Source: Escherichia phage vB_EcoM_ECO1230-10 | Strand: one strand, 5' to 3' | Sequence record: NC_027995.1 | Length of the DNA stretch: 41,666 bases | Shown: in pieces, positions 1,820 through 41,642 of the stretch | Position numbering within the stretch: the first letter of the stretch is position 1 | How the letters are laid out: each line of letters starts with the position of its first letter | The notes under the pieces: model-generated | Databases searched by the model: none | Told to the model about the DNA's origin: nothing | Seen by the model: only the letters and a program-made list of their open reading frames with translations | Position numbers and translations under genes: made by a program

Positions 1820-2131
1820 TTACGCCGTCAGTTCGGCGGGTTTGTCTTTGGTCAGTTGGTCAGGTTCCTGGTGGTCGTCACCGTCGATTGGCATCAGACA
1901 TCTTGGCGCAAAAAGCGACCAGCCTTGATCATGTTCACATCCTTTTGGATAAACATTCCCGGTCACCAACCATGAGGCATCGGCTTTCAGAGATAAGAAA
2001 GTCTCTCCGCCTGTAGGAATGTTAAACATCTGGCCAGGGGTGACAAAACGAACCAGCGTTACACACTTCCCGGCGTGTGGGTTGTCACCAATAACCAGCG
2101 CCAGGCAACCGGCTTTCAGTTCGCCTTTCAT
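1820..2131 (-). CDS. hypothetical protein (103 aa)
   Basis: ORF track; ATG overlaps upstream stop (ATGA coupling with ParB-like gene). Confidence 0.55.
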   Translation of the reverse strand: MKGELKAGCLALVIGDNPHAGKCVTLVRFVTPGQMFNIPTGGETFLSLKADASWLVTGNVYPKGCEHDQGWSLFAPRCLMPIDGDDHQEPDQLTKDKPAELTA

Positions 2132-3003
2132 TCCGGCACCCCGCCCACGTAATCAGCCACCAGGGCCATGAATTCACGCACCACGCCAGCAGGTGCGCGC
2201 AGGGTCATGGATTCGTCATCCTCGGCATCTTCCAGACGTTCATCGCTGTGGACCAGTTCGATATGCACAGCCAGGTCAGCCAGGCGCGTCAGCTTGTCTT
2301 TGCCAAACGGTGGCTGGATGGCTTCCGGCTTGGCCTTCTGCGCTTTCGGTGCCTTCGGCTCGGTGAATTTCTTCGTTACTTTATCCTTGCCAGCGGCTTT
2401 GGCTTCTTCCAGCGCCTGTGCGGCCACGGCTTCTGCTTCGGTTCCGTGCTGGCGTGTCAGTTCGGTGGCGGTCACGTAGGACATCTGGCCGCCGCGCACC
2501 ATGTCTTTGATGGGGTCCGGGCACTCAGCCAGGGCCAGCATGTTGGCCACGTCTGACGGGCTGCGCTTCACCTTCCTGGCTATCTCGTCATTGGTCCAGC
2601 CCTGCGCTTTCAGGCGCGCATAGGCTTTGGCGCGTTCCAGCGGTTCCAGTGGCTTGCCCTGGCTGCTGGTGACCATCAGCGCGATTTTGTCAGCCTCACT
2701 GGTGCCGGTGATGTCGTTCACTTCCAGACGCAGTTCCATGCCGGTTTCTGCGGCCATCTTGGCACCGGCAAAGCGGTGGTGGCCGTCAATCACCTTGATG
2801 CCATGCTGCGTCACTTCCACGGTCAGCGGAGGCACATATTCACCTGCCAGGTACGCATCGCGGAATTCTTCAACGTGCGCCTGGTCCACGTCGCGGATGT
2901 TGTAGCCATCTTCCACATACAGTTCAGCCAGCGGTACCCAAAACACCTTGCGCGGCTTTGCTTCTGTTTGTTTTGATTTATAAAGTTGTCCGATAGTAGC
3001 CAT
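2128..3003 (-). CDS. ParB-like nuclease domain protein
   Basis: IDGHHRFAGAKMA ParB/Srx-type motif in N-terminal half, followed by HTH-like segment and Lys/Ala-rich linker. Confidence 0.7.
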   Translation of the reverse strand: MATIGQLYKSKQTEAKPRKVFWVPLAELYVEDGYNIRDVDQAHVEEFRDAYLAGEYVPPLTVEVTQHGIKVIDGHHRFAGAKMAAETGMELRLEVNDITGTSEADKIALMVTSSQGKPLEPLERAKAYARLKAQGWTNDEIARKVKRSPSDVANMLALAECPDPIKDMVRGGQMSYVTATELTRQHGTEAEAVAAQALEEAKAAGKDKVTKKFTEPKAPKAQKAKPEAIQPPFGKDKLTRLADLAVHIELVHSDERLEDAEDDESMTLRAPAGVVREFMALVADYVGGVPE

Positions 3004-30816: not shown

Positions 30817-33120
30817 TCAAAATGGCCGGTCATCATCGTCATTGAATCGCCGGTGGTCAGGATTTGGCACCTTCGGCGGCAGGCTGAACAGGCGGTTGCT
30901 GCCAGACTTCCTGGCTGGCTTGCCAGTGAGTTTTCGAAGCACGCCAGCGCAATGGGTTGTCTGTGCCTTGTTCGGCTTATCGTAGCCTATTTCTTGCAGC
31001 ACCTGGGTTGCTGTACGGTCGGTGTAGGCTGCTGGTCTGTCGCAACCCCACTCGTAACGCATCAGTATCATTTCCTCTACCGGGTCAATCGCTTCGTGTT
31101 CCTTGTTCACTTGTTCCAGCATGGCTTCTTCTTCTGCGTTCATCCACCAGCGTTCGCCTTCGCGGTACAACTGCGCCACTTCTGCCCAAACTTGCTGCAT
31201 ATCAATATCGTGTTCGTAGTTGATGCGTGTTACCGGAATGGTCCACCAGCGAACGTTCCCTGTGTCATCCGCCAGGAAGTGTTTCGGGTTCACTGACGCA
31301 AAAAACACGGTTCTGCGCTGGTAGGTCGATTCAAGCCGGTCGTAAGGTCTGCGGATTTCGTCACGGTCCTGGCTGATGAATGATTTCAGGCGCGCAATGT
31401 CGGATTTGCGAAAAGTTGCATCCAGTTCGCCAAGCTCCACCATCCAGCGGCCAATTGCGCTGCTCACGCTGTCTTTGTTTGCCGGGTCGATTGTTGCCCC
31501 TACCTTAATTAATTCACGCAGTGTAGGCGGAACCAGCGAACGAAACCATGCTGTTTTCCCCAGCGACTGTTCACCCTGTAGCACCAGAACTCCTTTTGAG
31601 TAGAACCCGGTTGGCTGCATTGCTGCGGCAACGGCGGAAATCAACCAGCGGCGAACCATCATCAACACCAGACTGCGGTCAAAACCTTCCGCCGTTTCCA
31701 GTGTGTCACACAGGTCATAAATTCTGCTTACTCCATCCCACGGTTTTGCGGTGATAAATTCAGATGCAGGGTTGTAACGGTTGCTCATGGCAATCAGCTT
31801 TACATATTCAGCACAGGAACCAGACGGCATACCGTTGCGGGCACACAGGCTGACAATTTCAGTCAATGCACTGTTCGCTGATGCGTCGTTTCCGTAATCC
31901 TTTCCGGGGATCGTAACCACCACATCTTTGCTGATTTCGTTGTAACGCGATTTGATGCCGTACTGGTCAAGCAGCCATTCCAGGTTTTCCCACGTGTTAA
32001 GCGGTTTTTGCTGGTGGCTCATGTGCGGGAACATGAACGGGTTTACGCTGGCATCCAGAGGCAGAAAGTTATCATTCACCGGTTCCGGTATCACCGCGTT
32101 AATCTGGTCGCTTACAGCGTTTAAACCTTCCAGCACGTGCAGGTCATTAAAGTCGGTAGGCTTATCGCTAAGGCGCGTAAATTTAGGAACCGCCAGCAGG
32201 CCACCTGTTGTGATTGATGCCTGGCGCGCGTAGTGAACTCCATCATTTTGCTTGCCATCTTCGTGCCACTGGTCATTATCGGCTGCCACAACAATTGTTG
32301 CGCGTCCGAACTGCTGGCGCATCAGCTTGGCTACGGTCGGAACGTTTCCAGCATCGAAAGCGACCACCACGCAGTAACCGGTAGCCATGTGAATTGATGC
32401 GCCGGTGGAATACCCTTCACAGATAACAATAACCGGGTTTGCGCCAGTTGGTTTGTTGCCAATGACGTGGAAGCACCCACGTTTCTGGCCGCCCGGCAGG
32501 TAATCACGGTCACGCCCTAGCTGTGGGTTTTCGTTCTGGAATATGGCTTGCAGGCTGGTGATCTGCCCGTCAATGTTTCTGATTGGCACCAGCAGCGCGC
32601 CATCCTGGTTACGAAAACGACCGATGCGCAGCCCGAATGATTTAACCAGTTTGCGTTTCAGGTATGGGTGTTCATCGCCTTCCAGTTCGGTAGCTGATTC
32701 CCATATGTTGCGCGCCTGCTCTGCTGCCTGCGCCATACGTTCGGCGCGCAGTTGTTGTTCTTTGCGCTCTTCTTCTTCGCGGCGTTGTTTGCGCGCCTGA
32801 ATTTCTTCTGCAGAAATCGGCGTGCGTTCGTTGTCGTTCAGCGAAAAGCCAAATAACTGCGCCTCACCAATCAGGGTGCCAATGCCAATGCCGCCGTGAC
32901 GCTTCACTGATTTCCAGGTGTCGCGTGCGTCTTTGCTGTTGTACTTGTCAGACTGGCGTGACCAGTCATTCCAGACGGTGAAACCGCCGTCGCCTAGTTC
33001 CGATTTGACCGCCATCGCCATGCGCACCCATGTTTCACGGTCGCAACCGGCGTCAATGTAGGAAAGTGCTTCTGCAATTTCCTGTTCGGTCAAATCCTTA
33101 TAGTTTTGTTGTGCACTCAT
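30817..33120 (-). CDS. DNA primase / replicative NTPase (PriCT + TOPRIM + P-loop, P4-alpha/D5-like)
   Basis: TOPRIM VIVICEGYSTGASI and VVAADND; Walker A GEQSLGKT; 767 aa; C-terminus ends DDDDRPF. Confidence 0.85.
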   Translation of the reverse strand: MSAQQNYKDLTEQEIAEALSYIDAGCDRETWVRMAMAVKSELGDGGFTVWNDWSRQSDKYNSKDARDTWKSVKRHGGIGIGTLIGEAQLFGFSLNDNERTPISAEEIQARKQRREEEERKEQQLRAERMAQAAEQARNIWESATELEGDEHPYLKRKLVKSFGLRIGRFRNQDGALLVPIRNIDGQITSLQAIFQNENPQLGRDRDYLPGGQKRGCFHVIGNKPTGANPVIVICEGYSTGASIHMATGYCVVVAFDAGNVPTVAKLMRQQFGRATIVVAADNDQWHEDGKQNDGVHYARQASITTGGLLAVPKFTRLSDKPTDFNDLHVLEGLNAVSDQINAVIPEPVNDNFLPLDASVNPFMFPHMSHQQKPLNTWENLEWLLDQYGIKSRYNEISKDVVVTIPGKDYGNDASANSALTEIVSLCARNGMPSGSCAEYVKLIAMSNRYNPASEFITAKPWDGVSRIYDLCDTLETAEGFDRSLVLMMVRRWLISAVAAAMQPTGFYSKGVLVLQGEQSLGKTAWFRSLVPPTLRELIKVGATIDPANKDSVSSAIGRWMVELGELDATFRKSDIARLKSFISQDRDEIRRPYDRLESTYQRRTVFFASVNPKHFLADDTGNVRWWTIPVTRINYEHDIDMQQVWAEVAQLYREGERWWMNAEEEAMLEQVNKEHEAIDPVEEMILMRYEWGCDRPAAYTDRTATQVLQEIGYDKPNKAQTTHCAGVLRKLTGKPARKSGSNRLFSLPPKVPNPDHRRFNDDDDRPF

Positions 33121-33132
33121 AGAACCCCGATT

Positions 33133-33363
33133 TTATGGCCTGTTAGCGCGCCATATGGCCAGTGCGCGTTGTTCTAGTTCTTCGCGGGCTGTTGCTCCGC
33201 GCCGTTTTTCTATCGCTGCCAGCAGGGTGCGCCGTGCTTCAATGGTTGGCTGATTCAGAACGTATTTGGCTTCGCATTCCAGCAACCATTCCCGGCTATC
33301 GCTCAACACTTCGCGCCCATCGTGCAGCGTCACTGTGGTGGGCTGCCAGGTACAGGCGTTCAC
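33133..33363 (-). CDS. hypothetical protein (76 aa)
   Basis: ORF track; coupled to upstream gene. Confidence 0.5.
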   Translation of the reverse strand: MNACTWQPTTVTLHDGREVLSDSREWLLECEAKYVLNQPTIEARRTLLAAIEKRRGATAREELEQRALAIWRANRP

Positions 33364-34058
33364 GCGACAGCCTCACCGCTTGACGGTTCATTGTCGTTAG
33401 CGTGGCGCAGGTGAGTCGCGTTGGCGTTGAAAACAGCAATGGCGAAGCCCAATGGCGTTGCGCTGCGGATGTTTGCACGCTCTGGACCAGGTGGGCATTT
33501 ATGGATTCTGTCATCTGGCGCGCCTAACGTTTCATCGCGGAACGCTTCCGGCATAACGAAACCGCCACCAGTCCAAAGGCATGTTTTCTTTGTGTAATTG
33601 TCGTTTGCGCAATATCCAGTAAAGTCAGCCGGGTTGAAAGCGTAGTCGGGTTTACGCCACAGGCTGCTAATCTGGCTTACCGGGTTTTCAACGGCCCACG
33701 GCACACCGGCCATCTCGCCAATAATCTGGCACTGCCACACAACGTGCATTGCTTTGAACTGGAAAGCCGGGTCAGCCTCACGTTTCGTGCTAAACCAGCG
33801 AGCACCGCTTACCGCCAAATCAGTGCATGGAGGGAACCCCATAACAAAAACAACGTGACCAGTGGACACGGTGCGGCGCAAAATATCCCACGTAGCTGGA
33901 TGGTCGATAATATGGCCAACGCGGGTGATTGCGCCATCAACGTGAACGCCTTCCGGGTGCTGCGGGTCAACCAGAACGGCTTCATAACCTGCGTCAACCC
34001 ACGGCTTTGCCATTACGCCAGTGATGTCACACAGGCAGATAATAATTCCTTTACTCAT
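33360..34058 (-). CDS. small C5-cytosine-methyltransferase-like protein (minimal, 232 aa)
   Basis: GFPPC (motif IV-like Pro-Cys) and AVENP (motif VI-like ENV) about 44 aa apart; no clear FxGxGG motif I; too short for a canonical Dcm. Confidence 0.4.
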   Translation of the reverse strand: MSKGIIICLCDITGVMAKPWVDAGYEAVLVDPQHPEGVHVDGAITRVGHIIDHPATWDILRRTVSTGHVVFVMGFPPCTDLAVSGARWFSTKREADPAFQFKAMHVVWQCQIIGEMAGVPWAVENPVSQISSLWRKPDYAFNPADFTGYCANDNYTKKTCLWTGGGFVMPEAFRDETLGAPDDRIHKCPPGPERANIRSATPLGFAIAVFNANATHLRHANDNEPSSGEAVA

Positions 34059-34243
34059 AATTTGTTACCCCCGGACAATTTATACTCAAGCAATTCAAGC
34101 TGGTGGGTCGGAATGACTTTCCCGCCCTTACAGCGCCAGATAAGCACCGTTTGTTCAGTGCGGCCAAGTAAACGGCCAACATCGCGGCAGGTTAAGCCAT
34201 GTTTAGCCATAATGTCGTGAAGTCGTTCGGTCCTTTCGTCCAT
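34055..34243 (-). CDS. small HTH DNA-binding protein (Cro/XRE-like)
   Basis: start MDERTERL with GAGG SD; HGLTCRDVGRLLGRTEQTVLIW helix-turn-helix. Confidence 0.5.
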   Translation of the reverse strand: MDERTERLHDIMAKHGLTCRDVGRLLGRTEQTVLIWRCKGGKVIPTHQLELLEYKLSGGNKL

Positions 34244-34285
34244 AGTAATAGCCTCGTAATAACAATGCGCCCATAGTACAGGGCG

Positions 34286-34305
34286 CATTTCCTAAAGTAA
34301 ATATC
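34286..34305 (-). promoter_or_regulatory. conserved intergenic element partial copy C (CATTTCCT..GTAAATATC)
   Basis: same orientation as copies A and B; adjacent to palindrome aatgcgccc/gggcgcatt (34264-34289). Confidence 0.3.
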
Positions 34306-34323
34306 TTTTGAAATAATCTTACG

Positions 34324-34548
34324 TCATCTTGATGATTTCGGCATCACGAAACGGAAACCGGCCTGGTGCTTCATGGCCATTGCGCCTGCCAGGCGTATCA
34401 GTTCAGCGAAAGGGTCTTTGCCGATAGTTGACGTGGTGCGGTACTGTTGCGCCGCGTAGTCAGCCGCGTGCTGCGCTGTGCCAGGTGATGCGCCTTGCTT
34501 CACCAGTTCGGCCATGACTTGTTTTTTGATGAAGTCTACCGGGTTCAT
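34324..34548 (-). CDS. hypothetical small protein (74 aa)
   Basis: ORF track; ATGA coupling with upstream gene. Confidence 0.45.
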   Translation of the reverse strand: MNPVDFIKKQVMAELVKQGASPGTAQHAADYAAQQYRTTSTIGKDPFAELIRLAGAMAMKHQAGFRFVMPKSSR

Positions 34549-34781
34549 GCTGCCGCCCTCCGGTTGCGCTCCTTTCGTGCCTTGCGTCGCATAGCTGCAA
34601 TGCCGGTGAAGCGTGAACGGCGTGGCCCTGGCTTCGGGTAATCCAGTACCACTTGCATTGACCGCACCTTTGGACGCCAGCCAGCACGCACCAACGCCAT
34701 TTGAAAACCCAGGCTGATTTCCCTGGCTGATAACTTCCAGGCGTCAACCAGCCGCTGCATTGCCACTTTGAAAATATTCAT
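34545..34781 (-). CDS. hypothetical small basic protein (78 aa)
   Basis: ORF track; Arg/Lys-rich C-terminus; ATGA coupling. Confidence 0.45.
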   Translation of the reverse strand: MNIFKVAMQRLVDAWKLSAREISLGFQMALVRAGWRPKVRSMQVVLDYPKPGPRRSRFTGIAAMRRKARKERNRRAAA

Positions 34782-38428: not shown

Positions 38429-39568
38429 ATGAAACCAGGAGTTTACGAAGGCATTTCAAACGCTGAATACCACGGCGGCCCAGGCATCAGTAAGTCTGGC
38501 CTGGATTTGGTGCACCGCAGCCCGATGCACTACAACGCTGTTGTGACTGCTGCTAATGACCGCACGCCAACACCAGCGCAGGAAATCGGCACGGCTGTGC
38601 ATATGGCAATTCTTGAACCGGAAGAATTCGCAAAAACCTATTGCATGGCGCTGCGCCGTTCTGATGTGCCTGATGCCATTGATGACCGCGAAGTGCTGGT
38701 GGAAATGGTCAACAAGCTGAATGAAGCCCGCCTGGCAAAACTGTCAACCAGCGGTAATAAAGACGCGCTTATTGACCGTATTGTTGAATTTACCACTGGA
38801 TGGGGGACACGCGAAGAACTGGAAGCGATGAAAGTCGCAGAACTCAAAGCCTTCATTGAACGAGTCAACGAAAAACGCACTGGTTTGCTTTCCACCAGCG
38901 GCAGCCGTCATGAACTGGCCAACCTGCTGCGCGAAAACGGCGTGGAAGTCACACTGTGGTCAGATGTGCTGGAAGAATGGCAGCGCAATAACAGCGAACG
39001 CAAAGTGCTGTCACCGGAAGCGTTTGAACAAATTTTTGCCATGCGTGACTCGGTAATGAATCACCCGGCAGCTTTCGCTATCCTGCACCACGTCAAAGAC
39101 ATCATTGGTGACCTGAAAACAACAGAAGATGCCAGCCCGGAAGGGTTCGCAAAGTCAATCGCAAACTGGCGCTATGACGTGCAACACGCATACTACATTG
39201 ACGGCACGCGTCTGGCGCTTGAGCAGGGCAAGTGCAATCCGCCGCAGGAAGGAAAAGCAGAGTTATCAGTTTACTGGACGGATCCGGTGACCGGCGTTCT
39301 GTGCCGCTGCCGCCCTGATTTCTGGCGTGGTTATCCTAAACACTTTGCGTTTATCGCCGTTGAGAAAAAACCGCCTTACGCAGTTGGTGTTTATGTACTG
39401 GATAGCGAAGGCGTAGAAATTGGCCGCGCACAGTACCAGCATGATTTGCGCGTGTACGCTGAATGCGTGCGTTCAGGTGAATGGCCTGGCTACGGCGATA
39501 AAGTCCAGACCATCAGCCTGCCAGGCTGGCACGCGAACAAAAACGCCCACCTGGTTGGTGCGGCTTAA
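38429..39568 (+). CDS. PD-(D/E)XK recombination exonuclease (RecE/Cas4-like fold) with SAP-like inserts
   Basis: N-terminal GISNAEYH...H.AILEP pattern; two LSTSG...L SAP-like helices; first gene of Sak4/SSB module. Confidence 0.6.
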   Translation: MKPGVYEGISNAEYHGGPGISKSGLDLVHRSPMHYNAVVTAANDRTPTPAQEIGTAVHMAILEPEEFAKTYCMALRRSDVPDAIDDREVLVEMVNKLNEARLAKLSTSGNKDALIDRIVEFTTGWGTREELEAMKVAELKAFIERVNEKRTGLLSTSGSRHELANLLRENGVEVTLWSDVLEEWQRNNSERKVLSPEAFEQIFAMRDSVMNHPAAFAILHHVKDIIGDLKTTEDASPEGFAKSIANWRYDVQHAYYIDGTRLALEQGKCNPPQEGKAELSVYWTDPVTGVLCRCRPDFWRGYPKHFAFIAVEKKPPYAVGVYVLDSEGVEIGRAQYQHDLRVYAECVRSGEWPGYGDKVQTISLPGWHANKNAHLVGAA

Positions 39569-39595: not shown

Positions 39596-40585
39596 ATGGC
39601 AGTAATTAATATTCGTAAGGCAGAACGTGAAGGCGCGCGCCTGGTCATCGGCCTGGCAGGTATCAGCGGCAGTGGCAAAACCCTGTCAGCACTTATGCTG
39701 GCATACGGCCTGGCCAACGGTGACGGCACAAAGGTTGGCTTTCTCGATACTGAAAACCGCCGTGGCTCACTGTATGCCAGTGATGACACTTATGAAAAAA
39801 TCAAGGAATCACTTGGACTGAAAGAACGCCCTGACGCGTTTTGGATTGGCGATTTAGAACCTCCTTTCAGTCCGCAGCGCTACATTGACGCCATCCGCGA
39901 ATTTGAAAAGGCAGGCGTTGAAGTTCTGGTGATCGACTCCATCAGCCACGAATGGGAAGGAACAGGCGGCTGCGAAGAAATCGCCACCCTGGCCAACCCG
40001 TTGAAGCCACAATGGAACCGCGCGAAGGCGGAACACAAACGATTCATGAACGCGTTGCTGCAATCCAACATGCACATCATCTGCTGCATCCGCGCACGTG
40101 AAAAAGTGAAACTGGTGAAGGTCAACGGTAAAACGGAATATGAACCGCAAGGCATCATGCCGGTGACGGAAAAGAACGTGATGTTTGAAATGACCGCCAG
40201 CCTGATGATGTGGGATTCTGGCAGCGCGCAGCAGGTCATGAAGTGCCCGGAAGAATTGCGCGGCATCTTAGGACGTGAAACGGGCTACATTAGCGCGCAG
40301 GACGGTTTGGCGCTGCGTCAGTGGGTTCATGGTGGCAACAAGTTAGATCCGAAGGTGGAAGCCTACCGCAACAAGCTGCGCGGCGTTACAGAACAGGGTG
40401 AGCAGTACACGCAAGAATGTTGGGACAAAACCCCGCCAAATATCCGCAAGGCGTTGGGCGATGACTTCAAACAATCATTGTTGGAAGCGGCCCGCGCATA
40501 TGACGAACAGCGCACCAACGCCAACGGCGATGCGCAGGACGTTGATGATTTAAACAGCCAGGTGATGGGCACCGGCGCACAGTAG
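39596..40585 (+). CDS. Sak4-like RecA-fold ATPase (single-strand annealing/recombination)
   Basis: Walker A GISGSGKT; VLVIDSISHEW (Walker B-like); adjacent to exonuclease and SSB. Confidence 0.65.
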   Translation: MAVINIRKAEREGARLVIGLAGISGSGKTLSALMLAYGLANGDGTKVGFLDTENRRGSLYASDDTYEKIKESLGLKERPDAFWIGDLEPPFSPQRYIDAIREFEKAGVEVLVIDSISHEWEGTGGCEEIATLANPLKPQWNRAKAEHKRFMNALLQSNMHIICCIRAREKVKLVKVNGKTEYEPQGIMPVTEKNVMFEMTASLMMWDSGSAQQVMKCPEELRGILGRETGYISAQDGLALRQWVHGGNKLDPKVEAYRNKLRGVTEQGEQYTQECWDKTPPNIRKALGDDFKQSLLEAARAYDEQRTNANGDAQDVDDLNSQVMGTGAQ

Positions 40586-41156: not shown

Positions 41157-41642
41157 ATGGCCGGTTCACTGAACAAAGTAGAAATCATTGGCAACTTAGG
41201 CAACGATCCAGAAATCCGTTACATGCCAAGCGGCGGCGCGGTTGCTAATCTAAGCATCGCCACAACTGAAAGCTGGAAGGATAAAACCACCGGCGAGAAG
41301 AAAGAACAAACGGAATGGCACCGCGTTGTCATCTTCGGTAAGCTGGCAGAAATTGCTAGCGAATACCTGCGCAAAGGTAGCAAGGTGTTCATTGAAGGCA
41401 GCCTGCGAACGCGTAAATGGCAGGACCAGGCTGGCGTTGATCGCTACACCACTGAAATCAACGTGGGCATGAATGGACGGTTGTTGATGCTGTCAGCGGC
41501 CAACGATAACCAGGCCGGTGGGCAAAGCCAGGGCAGCCAGCAAGGCGGATGGGGTAATCCGCAGCAGCCAACCCACAGCGGCAAACAGAAACCACCAGCG
41601 AACGAACCCCCGATGGACTTCGATGATGACATCCCGTTTTAA
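41157..41642 (+). CDS. ssb: single-stranded DNA-binding protein
   Basis: OB-fold N-terminus ([33 protein letters not shown]), Gly/Gln-rich linker, acidic tail DFDDDIPF. Confidence 0.9.

Follow-up and report, generated by a model that had tools for sequence, protein, structure and literature searches.

The window analysed here is a stretch of 41,666 nucleotides from Escherichia phage vB_EcoM_ECO1230-10 (NC_027995.1). One gene on its minus strand codes, with a probability of roughly three in four, for an active stand-alone (orphan) DNA cytosine-5 methyltransferase (C5-MTase) that depends on S-adenosylmethionine (SAM) and belongs to a compact, phage-specific family. This reading is supported by the fold, the invariant catalytic residues, the match to PHROG family 757 and the homology to a Dcm-type enzyme that produces 5-methylcytosine (5mC); the protein's own activity, sequence specificity and biological role are inferred. 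The same lines of evidence uphold the initial annotation in its proposal of a divergent, minimal C5-MTase-like enzyme of DNA modification. The finding is correct, although most of it was known before; the gene adds to a known, annotated and partly characterised family, and the protein of phage KA2-1, which is 96.6% identical to the window protein, is already labelled "DNA methyltransferase".

Family membership and predicted fold

The profile phrog_757 ("DNA methyltransferase") matches residues 1-226 of the protein over positions 12-231 of its 247 positions, with E=3.5e-81. The AlphaFold2 model is confident, with a predicted local distance difference test score (pLDDT) of 88.6, and the top matches of the fold search are DNA C5-MTases, with DNMT3A and DNMT3B first. 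In this predicted model the protein has the Rossmann-type fold of class I MTases together with the core specific to C5-MTases. Structure prediction, which had been suggested as a check, led to C5-MTases as the best matches.

The window protein is a single domain that lacks a target-recognition domain (TRD) and is encoded by an orphan gene; members of the family have ~210-250 residues and reside in the early regions of phages and prophages. We know of no smaller C5-MTase architecture. Homologs found at E<=1e-3 form 5,998 clusters at 90% identity, none of which has a Pfam domain; at 50% identity the number of clusters is 1,727, most of them with lengths of 205-260 residues. Of 50,697 phage records, 1,544 contain a member of the family, and the carriers include T1-like Drexlerviridae, Webervirus, rV5-like, RB49-like, phAPEC8-like and Kagunavirus phages. 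It is very large yet invisible to Pfam and NCBIfam and inconsistently named, as "DNA methyltransferase", "DNA cytosine methyltransferase", "site-specific DNA methylase" or "hypothetical protein" according to the record.

No significant match emerged from searches of Pfam, NCBIfam and the PDB sequences, whether the query was the window protein itself or either of two family profiles, and the window protein has no Pfam match even at E<=1. Matches to ornithine decarboxylase and KtrA (E~0.1-1) were dismissed as noise. The conservation alignment was built from 82 cluster representatives with 32-54% identity to the window protein; seven of these relatives weakly match PF00145 (best E=0.0039), the sole Pfam family matched by more than two members.

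Conserved motifs and catalytic residues

Seven residues (D31, C78, E124, P126, K157, W162 and G204) are invariant in all 82 relatives; the positions of the motifs are listed in Table 1. C78, the predicted nucleophile, lies in motif IV, for which the family consensus is F-P-P-C-T-D-L-A-x-S-G. It is also invariant in 50 of the 50 sequences of a second alignment, and stands opposite C82 of the K42-type Dcm (the phage tonijn protein), C81 of M.HhaI and the SPC of DNMT3A. E124 corresponds to the glutamate of the ENV motif and is aligned with E128 of the K42-type Dcm and E119 of M.HhaI. In the E-N-P of this motif VI, N125 is kept in 76 of the 82 relatives, next to the invariant E124 and P126. Both codons were checked in the raw sequence (TGC at 33825-33827 for C78 and GAA at 33687-33689 for E124).

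The spacing between the two catalytic residues is 46 residues in the window protein and likewise 46 in human DNMT3A, compared to 38 in M.HhaI; the DNMT3A and M.HhaI reference sequences are identical to PDB chains (5yx2_A for DNMT3A). GFPPC and AVENP had initially been noticed at the spacing seen in C5-MTases, and this pattern proves to be real. It goes beyond chance because C78 and E124 are invariant in the 82 relatives and the fold matches that of C5-MTases.

The remark that an obvious motif I is lacking holds in part. The canonical FxGxG is indeed absent, but a degenerate motif, LCDITG, occupies the structurally right position and retains the final glycine alone. In the AlphaFold2 model a strand (residues 5-9) leads into this loop and a helix (residues 18-22) follows it, and hhalign pairs LCDITG with SLFDG of DNMT3A. 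Across the family this motif reads L-[F/C/Y]-D-x-[T/S]-G-x-M-x-x-P-W, with G14 present in 65 of 82 relatives. Motif II is represented by the invariant D31 at the end of strand β2.

The QxRxR of motif VIII is not present in the window protein, which has Y155-T-K157-K-T159-C-L-W162 in its place. K157 and K158 stand opposite K175 and K176, the lysines mutated in K42 Dcm, and probably substitute for the arginines of QxRxR, an analogy backed by the K175A/K176A mutant. The C-terminal segment, R-S-x-T-P-x-G-F-A-x-A-V, resembles motifs IX and X. It is connected to the motif VIII-like segment by a linker with ~20-30 low-confidence residues, whose sequence is subfamily-specific and which, judging by the motif order, would take the position of the TRD. 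The protein had been described as about 100 residues shorter than typical enzymes; this agrees with its length, 95 residues below that of M.HhaI, and the ~100 residues missing compared to typical enzymes are the TRD.

Exactly at the TRD position, the homologs P0092, P0097, P0106 and P0121 carry an insertion of ~33 residues (e.g. AEAIRLVKTRYGRMVPKKDAVLEM-GDPFIAEWY). In this subset of homologs the insertion may be a rudimentary specificity element.

Similarity to the K42-type Dcm

A characterised relative comes from a study of retron Ec86 (Wang et al., bioRxiv 10.1101/2023.08.16.553469; also published in Cell Rep 2024;43:114857), in which all escapers of the KarlJaspers-like Drexlerviridae phage K42 had broken a 711-bp "dcm" gene. 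Expression of K42 Dcm was toxic solely with the retron present, and a C82A/E128A/K175A/K176A mutant was inert, the catalytic residues having been assigned by superposition of an AlphaFold2 model on DNMT3A. Moreover, liquid chromatography-mass spectrometry detected high 5mC on the multicopy single-stranded DNA (msDNA) of retron Ec86 with wild-type K42 Dcm only. The assays were performed in the dcm+ strain MG1655, and the host Dcm itself did not activate the retron (10.1101/2023.08.16.553469).

We linked the window protein to K42 Dcm through the genes of phages tonijn and FritzSarasin, relying on equal length and equal residue numbers. Tonijn gp41 is likewise encoded by 711 bp and has C82, E128, K175 and K176 at the K42 Dcm positions, and the gene of the BASEL phage FritzSarasin, labelled "Dcm-like C5 cytosine methyltransferase", is 99.7% identical to it. 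BLASTP aligned the window protein with tonijn gp41 over the full length (38% identity, E=3e-46), which places C78, E124, K157 and K158 opposite C82, E128, K175 and K176, respectively. This full-length alignment and the four matched residues make the window protein a divergent relative within a family in which one enzyme has biochemical support. A literature search for phrog_757 and Dcm-like phage enzymes found no further experimental work.

The K42-type Dcm (236 residues) and the window protein belong to the same PHROG family, and both are compact single-domain proteins encoded by an orphan gene in a phage early region. They have in common FPPC, ENP, KK-T-C-L-W and RS-x-TP-x-GFA. Despite this shared architecture, the K42-type Dcm represents another subfamily, the T1-like branch, with a canonical LFDGSG as motif I compared to LCDITG in the window protein. 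In addition, the window protein lacks the 14-residue insertion that precedes motif VIII in the K42-type Dcm, and the two differ in the linker at the TRD position.

Comparison with DNMT3 and classical C5-MTases

The catalytic domains of DNMT3A and DNMT3B share 10-14% identity with the window protein and are ~50 residues longer; they differ from the window protein in carrying a genuine TRD loop as well as interfaces for oligomerisation. An hhalign comparison of the family with DNMT3A covered motifs I-IV with 48% probability and E=1.8e-4, a score that is suggestive but short of proof. The likeness to DNMT3 is a resemblance, not a demonstrated close kinship.

The classical C5-MTases of PF00145, such as M.HhaI, M.HaeIII and Escherichia coli Dcm, are ~100 residues longer than the window protein and possess a TRD. 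They have QxRxR in motif VIII, compared to Y-T-K-K-T-C-L-W in the window protein, which falls below the PF00145 threshold and has no restriction-enzyme partner. When M.HhaI was compared, first by its sequence alone and then by a profile of 30 sequences, the probability was a non-significant ~4%, although the correct PC/ENV register was chosen; this profile is shallow, as all its homologs are at least 71% identical to M.HhaI.

Selection and domain fusions

The window gene and its KA2-1 ortholog differ by 62 synonymous and 9 non-synonymous changes, which corresponds to a ratio of non-synonymous to synonymous substitution rates (dN/dS) of 0.03; the gene is under strong purifying selection. Several homologs are joined to further domains, which, like the purifying selection, speaks for an active DNA enzyme. 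P0121 (563 residues), which is fused to a D12-class, Dam-type N6-adenine DNA MTase, is a putative bifunctional C5/N6 enzyme, and P0175 (348 residues) is fused to an HNH nuclease domain. Inteins usually sit in active-site motifs. In P0236 (548 residues) an intein (Hint and LAGLIDADG) is inserted directly before the catalytic cysteine, GFPP-[CFTGDT...IVHN]-CTNLSVSG, and this cysteine, the equivalent of C78, doubles as the +1 splice nucleophile.

Genomic organisation and the accessory cassette

The interval singled out in the initial annotation, 33133-34058, comprises two minus-strand open reading frames (ORFs) of 232 and 76 residues. The order of transcription on this strand is the helix-turn-helix (HTH) gene, the MTase gene, the DUF7696 gene and the primase gene; the MTase gene is therefore upstream of the primase gene, not downstream as had been stated. 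The stop codon of the HTH gene and the start codon of the MTase gene share ATGA, and the MTase stop and the DUF7696 start share GTGA. With these overlaps on both sides, the MTase gene is embedded in an operon.

The 76-residue neighbour, previously regarded as unknown, scores 61.6 bits for PF24751 (DUF7696), above the Pfam gathering threshold of 27 (E=7.4e-17), and is a gene of the phage backbone. DUF7696 was considered as a partner or specificity subunit of the MTase and rejected, since it occurs without the MTase in Bas97 and ep3 and is absent beside the homologs elsewhere. No restriction endonuclease gene adjoins the MTase gene, whose neighbours are the HTH, DUF7696 and primase genes, and a non-exhaustive comparison of 24 window ORFs with PHROGs revealed no second methyltransferase.

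Table 1. Features of the methyltransferase locus (positions in the window)
Feature	Position	Strand	Basis
C5-MTase-like gene, PHROG 757 family, 232 residues, ATG start	33360..34058	-	ORF list
DUF7696 gene, 76 residues, GTG start, phage backbone	33133..33363	-	Pfam PF24751; phrog_11642, E=3.3e-42
HTH gene, "transcriptional repressor", 77 residues, backbone	34055..34288	-	phrog_14341
Primase gene	30817..33120	-	phrog_2249
Shine-Dalgarno-like GGGGG, 9 nt 5' of the MTase ATG, within the 3' end of the HTH gene	34068..34072	-	
Accessory cassette of 723 bp, replaced by 28 bp in HeidiAbel/Bas97	33363..34085	-	blastn
Degenerate motif I, LCDITG, residues 9-14, β1-αA loop, presumed SAM-binding	34017..34034	-	AlphaFold2 model, alignment
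Motif IV, GFPPC, residues 74-78, predicted nucleophile C78	33825..33839	-	alignments
Motif VI, AVENP, residues 122-126, E124 as the ENV glutamate	33681..33695	-	alignments
Motif VIII-like YTKKTCLW, residues 155-162	33573..33596	-	K157 and W162 invariant
Short linker at the TRD position, residues ~165-197	33468..33566	-	pLDDT 65-80, lowest in the model

The window phage is of the Jilinvirus type (Iiscvirinae), and Jilinvirus has been described in the literature as possibly facultatively temperate. Its nearest relative is Escherichia phage ET-SD-TH, with 92% identity, and the other relatives are HeidiAbel/Bas97, ep3, PT1, Alux-21, ECOO78, KA2-1 and Arya. Among these relatives, the MTase gene is found in ET-SD-TH and KA2-1 only; it is absent from ep3, HeidiAbel/Bas97, PT1 and others. 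A blastn comparison of the window with Bas97 returned homology at 32501-33362 and 34086-34700 alone, the two flanks being 90-96% identical. The HTH and DUF7696 genes are immediate neighbours in both Bas97 and ep3, and the DUF7696 gene lies next to the primase gene. The MTase gene is a gene-sized accessory cassette, and Jilinvirus relatives with and without it offer a ready natural comparison.

The last ~9 codons of the HTH gene (34058-34085) differ between the MTase-carrying and the MTase-less relatives. The cassette boundary lies inside the HTH gene, and the ribosome-binding site of the MTase gene travels with the cassette.

In bacterial genomes, close homologs occupy the early regions of prophages, for instance between NinB and NinE/NinF in lambdoid prophages of Cronobacter. 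An Agrobacterium homolog adjoins HTH_39 and IstB-like genes, and a Pseudomonas homolog lies near an integrase gene. Neither a conserved neighbour nor a restriction enzyme was found in these bacterial prophage contexts.

Proposed function

In the proposed mechanism, the window protein would keep the core of a C5-MTase, namely the LCDITG loop for SAM, D31, C78, E124, K157/K158 of motif VIII and the motif IX/X-like helices, with essentially no TRD. By analogy with classical C5-MTase chemistry and in view of the K42 mutant, C78 would attack C6 of a flipped-out cytosine and E124 would protonate N3, with the methyl group passing from SAM to C5. The target would be phage DNA and, incidentally, host DNA. 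The enzyme would act on replicating phage DNA, because its gene lies in an early/replication operon and is translationally coupled to its neighbours.

The likely benefit would be that phage DNA is shielded from some restriction enzymes, whereas the likely costs would be 5mC-dependent restriction and sensors such as retron Ec86/Eco1. 5mC exposes DNA to 5mC-dependent nucleases such as McrBC. The patchy distribution of the gene would fit with these probable costs, that is, activation of retron Ec86/Eco1 and attack by 5mC-dependent nucleases. Carriage of the gene probably alters the sensitivity of a phage to restriction, 5mC-dependent nucleases and retron Eco1, and is relevant to the choice of phages for therapy and to the interpretation of host range. 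The gene should be annotated as an orphan, compact-type cytosine-5 DNA MTase, neither as a hypothetical protein nor as paired with DUF7696. An anti-restriction role is plausible, and HeidiAbel, which lacks the MTase gene, has been reported to be very sensitive to restriction-modification (RM) systems (PMC11990801).

Several points weigh against an active C5-MTase that protects phage DNA. In terms of sequence, the window protein is below every Pfam and NCBIfam threshold, its profile comparisons with M.HhaI are non-significant, and it is just 38% identical to the characterised type; its activity is predicted by homology. In LCDITG neither the aromatic residue nor the first glycine of FxGxG is kept, and the presumed binding of SAM is a prediction. 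In addition, the CCWGG specificity proposed for K42 Dcm derives from analogy with the host Dcm and from site mutagenesis of msDNA in a dcm+ host. Finally, most Drexlerviridae with genes of this kind are nonetheless highly sensitive to RM systems, with no pattern linking gene and resistance in the BASEL collection (PMC8594841).

Sequence specificity

The window contains 220 CCWGG sites, as expected under a third-order Markov model, so that this motif is neither avoided nor enriched; the count was dropped as a hint to specificity, being uninformative. As a separate observation, several other sites, of the restriction type, are strongly depleted in the window when set against a Markov model of maximal order: GATC (53 versus 152 expected), AGCT (69 versus 126), CTGAAG (0 versus 23), GGCGCC (2 versus 26), CGGCCG (0 versus 16.5) and GCCGGC (0 versus 15).

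Because the family has no TRD, its specificity may not be Dcm-like, although we consider this rather unlikely. The enzymes might instead recognise a short or relaxed motif, or a DNA structure such as single-stranded DNA, hairpins or replication intermediates. If so, such an enzyme would be to cytosine what the non-specific MTase M.EcoGII is to adenine. The behaviour of K42 Dcm would then be accounted for as well, namely the activation of retron Ec86 in a dcm+ host whose own Dcm does not activate it, the toxicity of over-expression and the action on hairpin msDNA. M.EcoGII (PMC5778455) is likewise an orphan, phage-borne (prophage) DNA MTase, and its non-specific action is a precedent for relaxed specificity. 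However, M.EcoGII has N6-adenine chemistry and belongs to another family, and relaxed specificity of the window enzyme is hypothetical.

Alternative explanations

It is unlikely that the protein is an active DNA C5-MTase with a main role other than anti-restriction, such as the timing of replication or packaging, gene regulation or host manipulation. Such a role would agree with the missing correlation between gene and RM resistance in the BASEL Drexlerviridae, with the location of the gene inside the replication operon, where a regulator and the primase flank it, and with the lack of CCWGG avoidance in the genome. However, the gene is dispensable in the genus, being absent from ep3, Bas97, PT1 and others, and this dispensability is more in keeping with an accessory gene of an arms race than with a core regulator. 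Moreover, its spread over unrelated phage families is patchy and horizontally mobile, which is typical of counter-defence genes.

It seems distinctly improbable that the protein applies C5-MTase chemistry to a different cofactor or product, such as carboxymethyl-SAM or some other C5 adduct, and so makes a cytosine modification other than 5mC. The fold score of 8yf3 does not exceed those of ordinary C5-MTases, the characterised K42 Dcm yields 5mC, and no gene for cofactor synthesis (CmoA-like) was found beside the MTase gene in any context examined.

Slightly less probable still is a substrate other than DNA, either RNA, as for Dnmt2 on tRNA, or free nucleotides, in which case the substrate itself would account for the missing TRD. 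The fold matches do include the RNA MTases FtsJ/Spb1 and Dnmt2, but RNA MTases align over ~130 residues compared to ~180 for the C5 DNA MTases. In addition, one homolog methylates DNA, another is fused to a Dam-type DNA MTase, and the gene always resides in modules of DNA replication or recombination. The nucleotide-modifying enzyme offered as an alternative in the initial annotation found no support.

The last alternative, an inactive fold, was also raised there. A catalytically dead remnant, either functionless or acting as a decoy that binds DNA or SAM, would explain the degenerate motif I and the truncation relative to classical enzymes, yet we consider it very improbable, because dN/dS is 0.03, the catalytic cysteine and glutamate are invariant in 82 diverse members and the P0236 intein sits exactly at the catalytic cysteine; besides, the compact length recurs in ~6,000 homologs and the compact K42-type enzyme is active.

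Other genes of the window and atypical carriers

Elsewhere, the window codes for a ParB-like protein (2128-3003, minus strand), a RecE-like exonuclease VIII and, beside it, a protein of an unknown family, phrog_1366 (38429-39568 and 39596-40585, respectively, both on the plus strand), and an SSB protein (41157-41642, plus strand).

Weak homologs of the MTase, with 27-31% identity and E-values of 8e-9 and 7e-6, are present in two records of ~6 kb, MG945386.1 and MT838132.1 (Microviridae sp. / Bacteriophage sp.), an unexpected cargo for small single-stranded DNA phages. In addition, 36 records named "Campylobacter phage" carry homologs whose similarity to the window protein is like that of the homologs of rV5-like and T1-like coliphages. 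Examples are MG065674.1 (A140; 140,874 bp) and MG065643.1 (E6; 49,946 bp), the lengths of which are typical of rV5-like and T1-like phages. Because both the homolog similarity and the record lengths resemble those of rV5-like and T1-like phages, the host labels of these "Campylobacter phage" records may be wrong.

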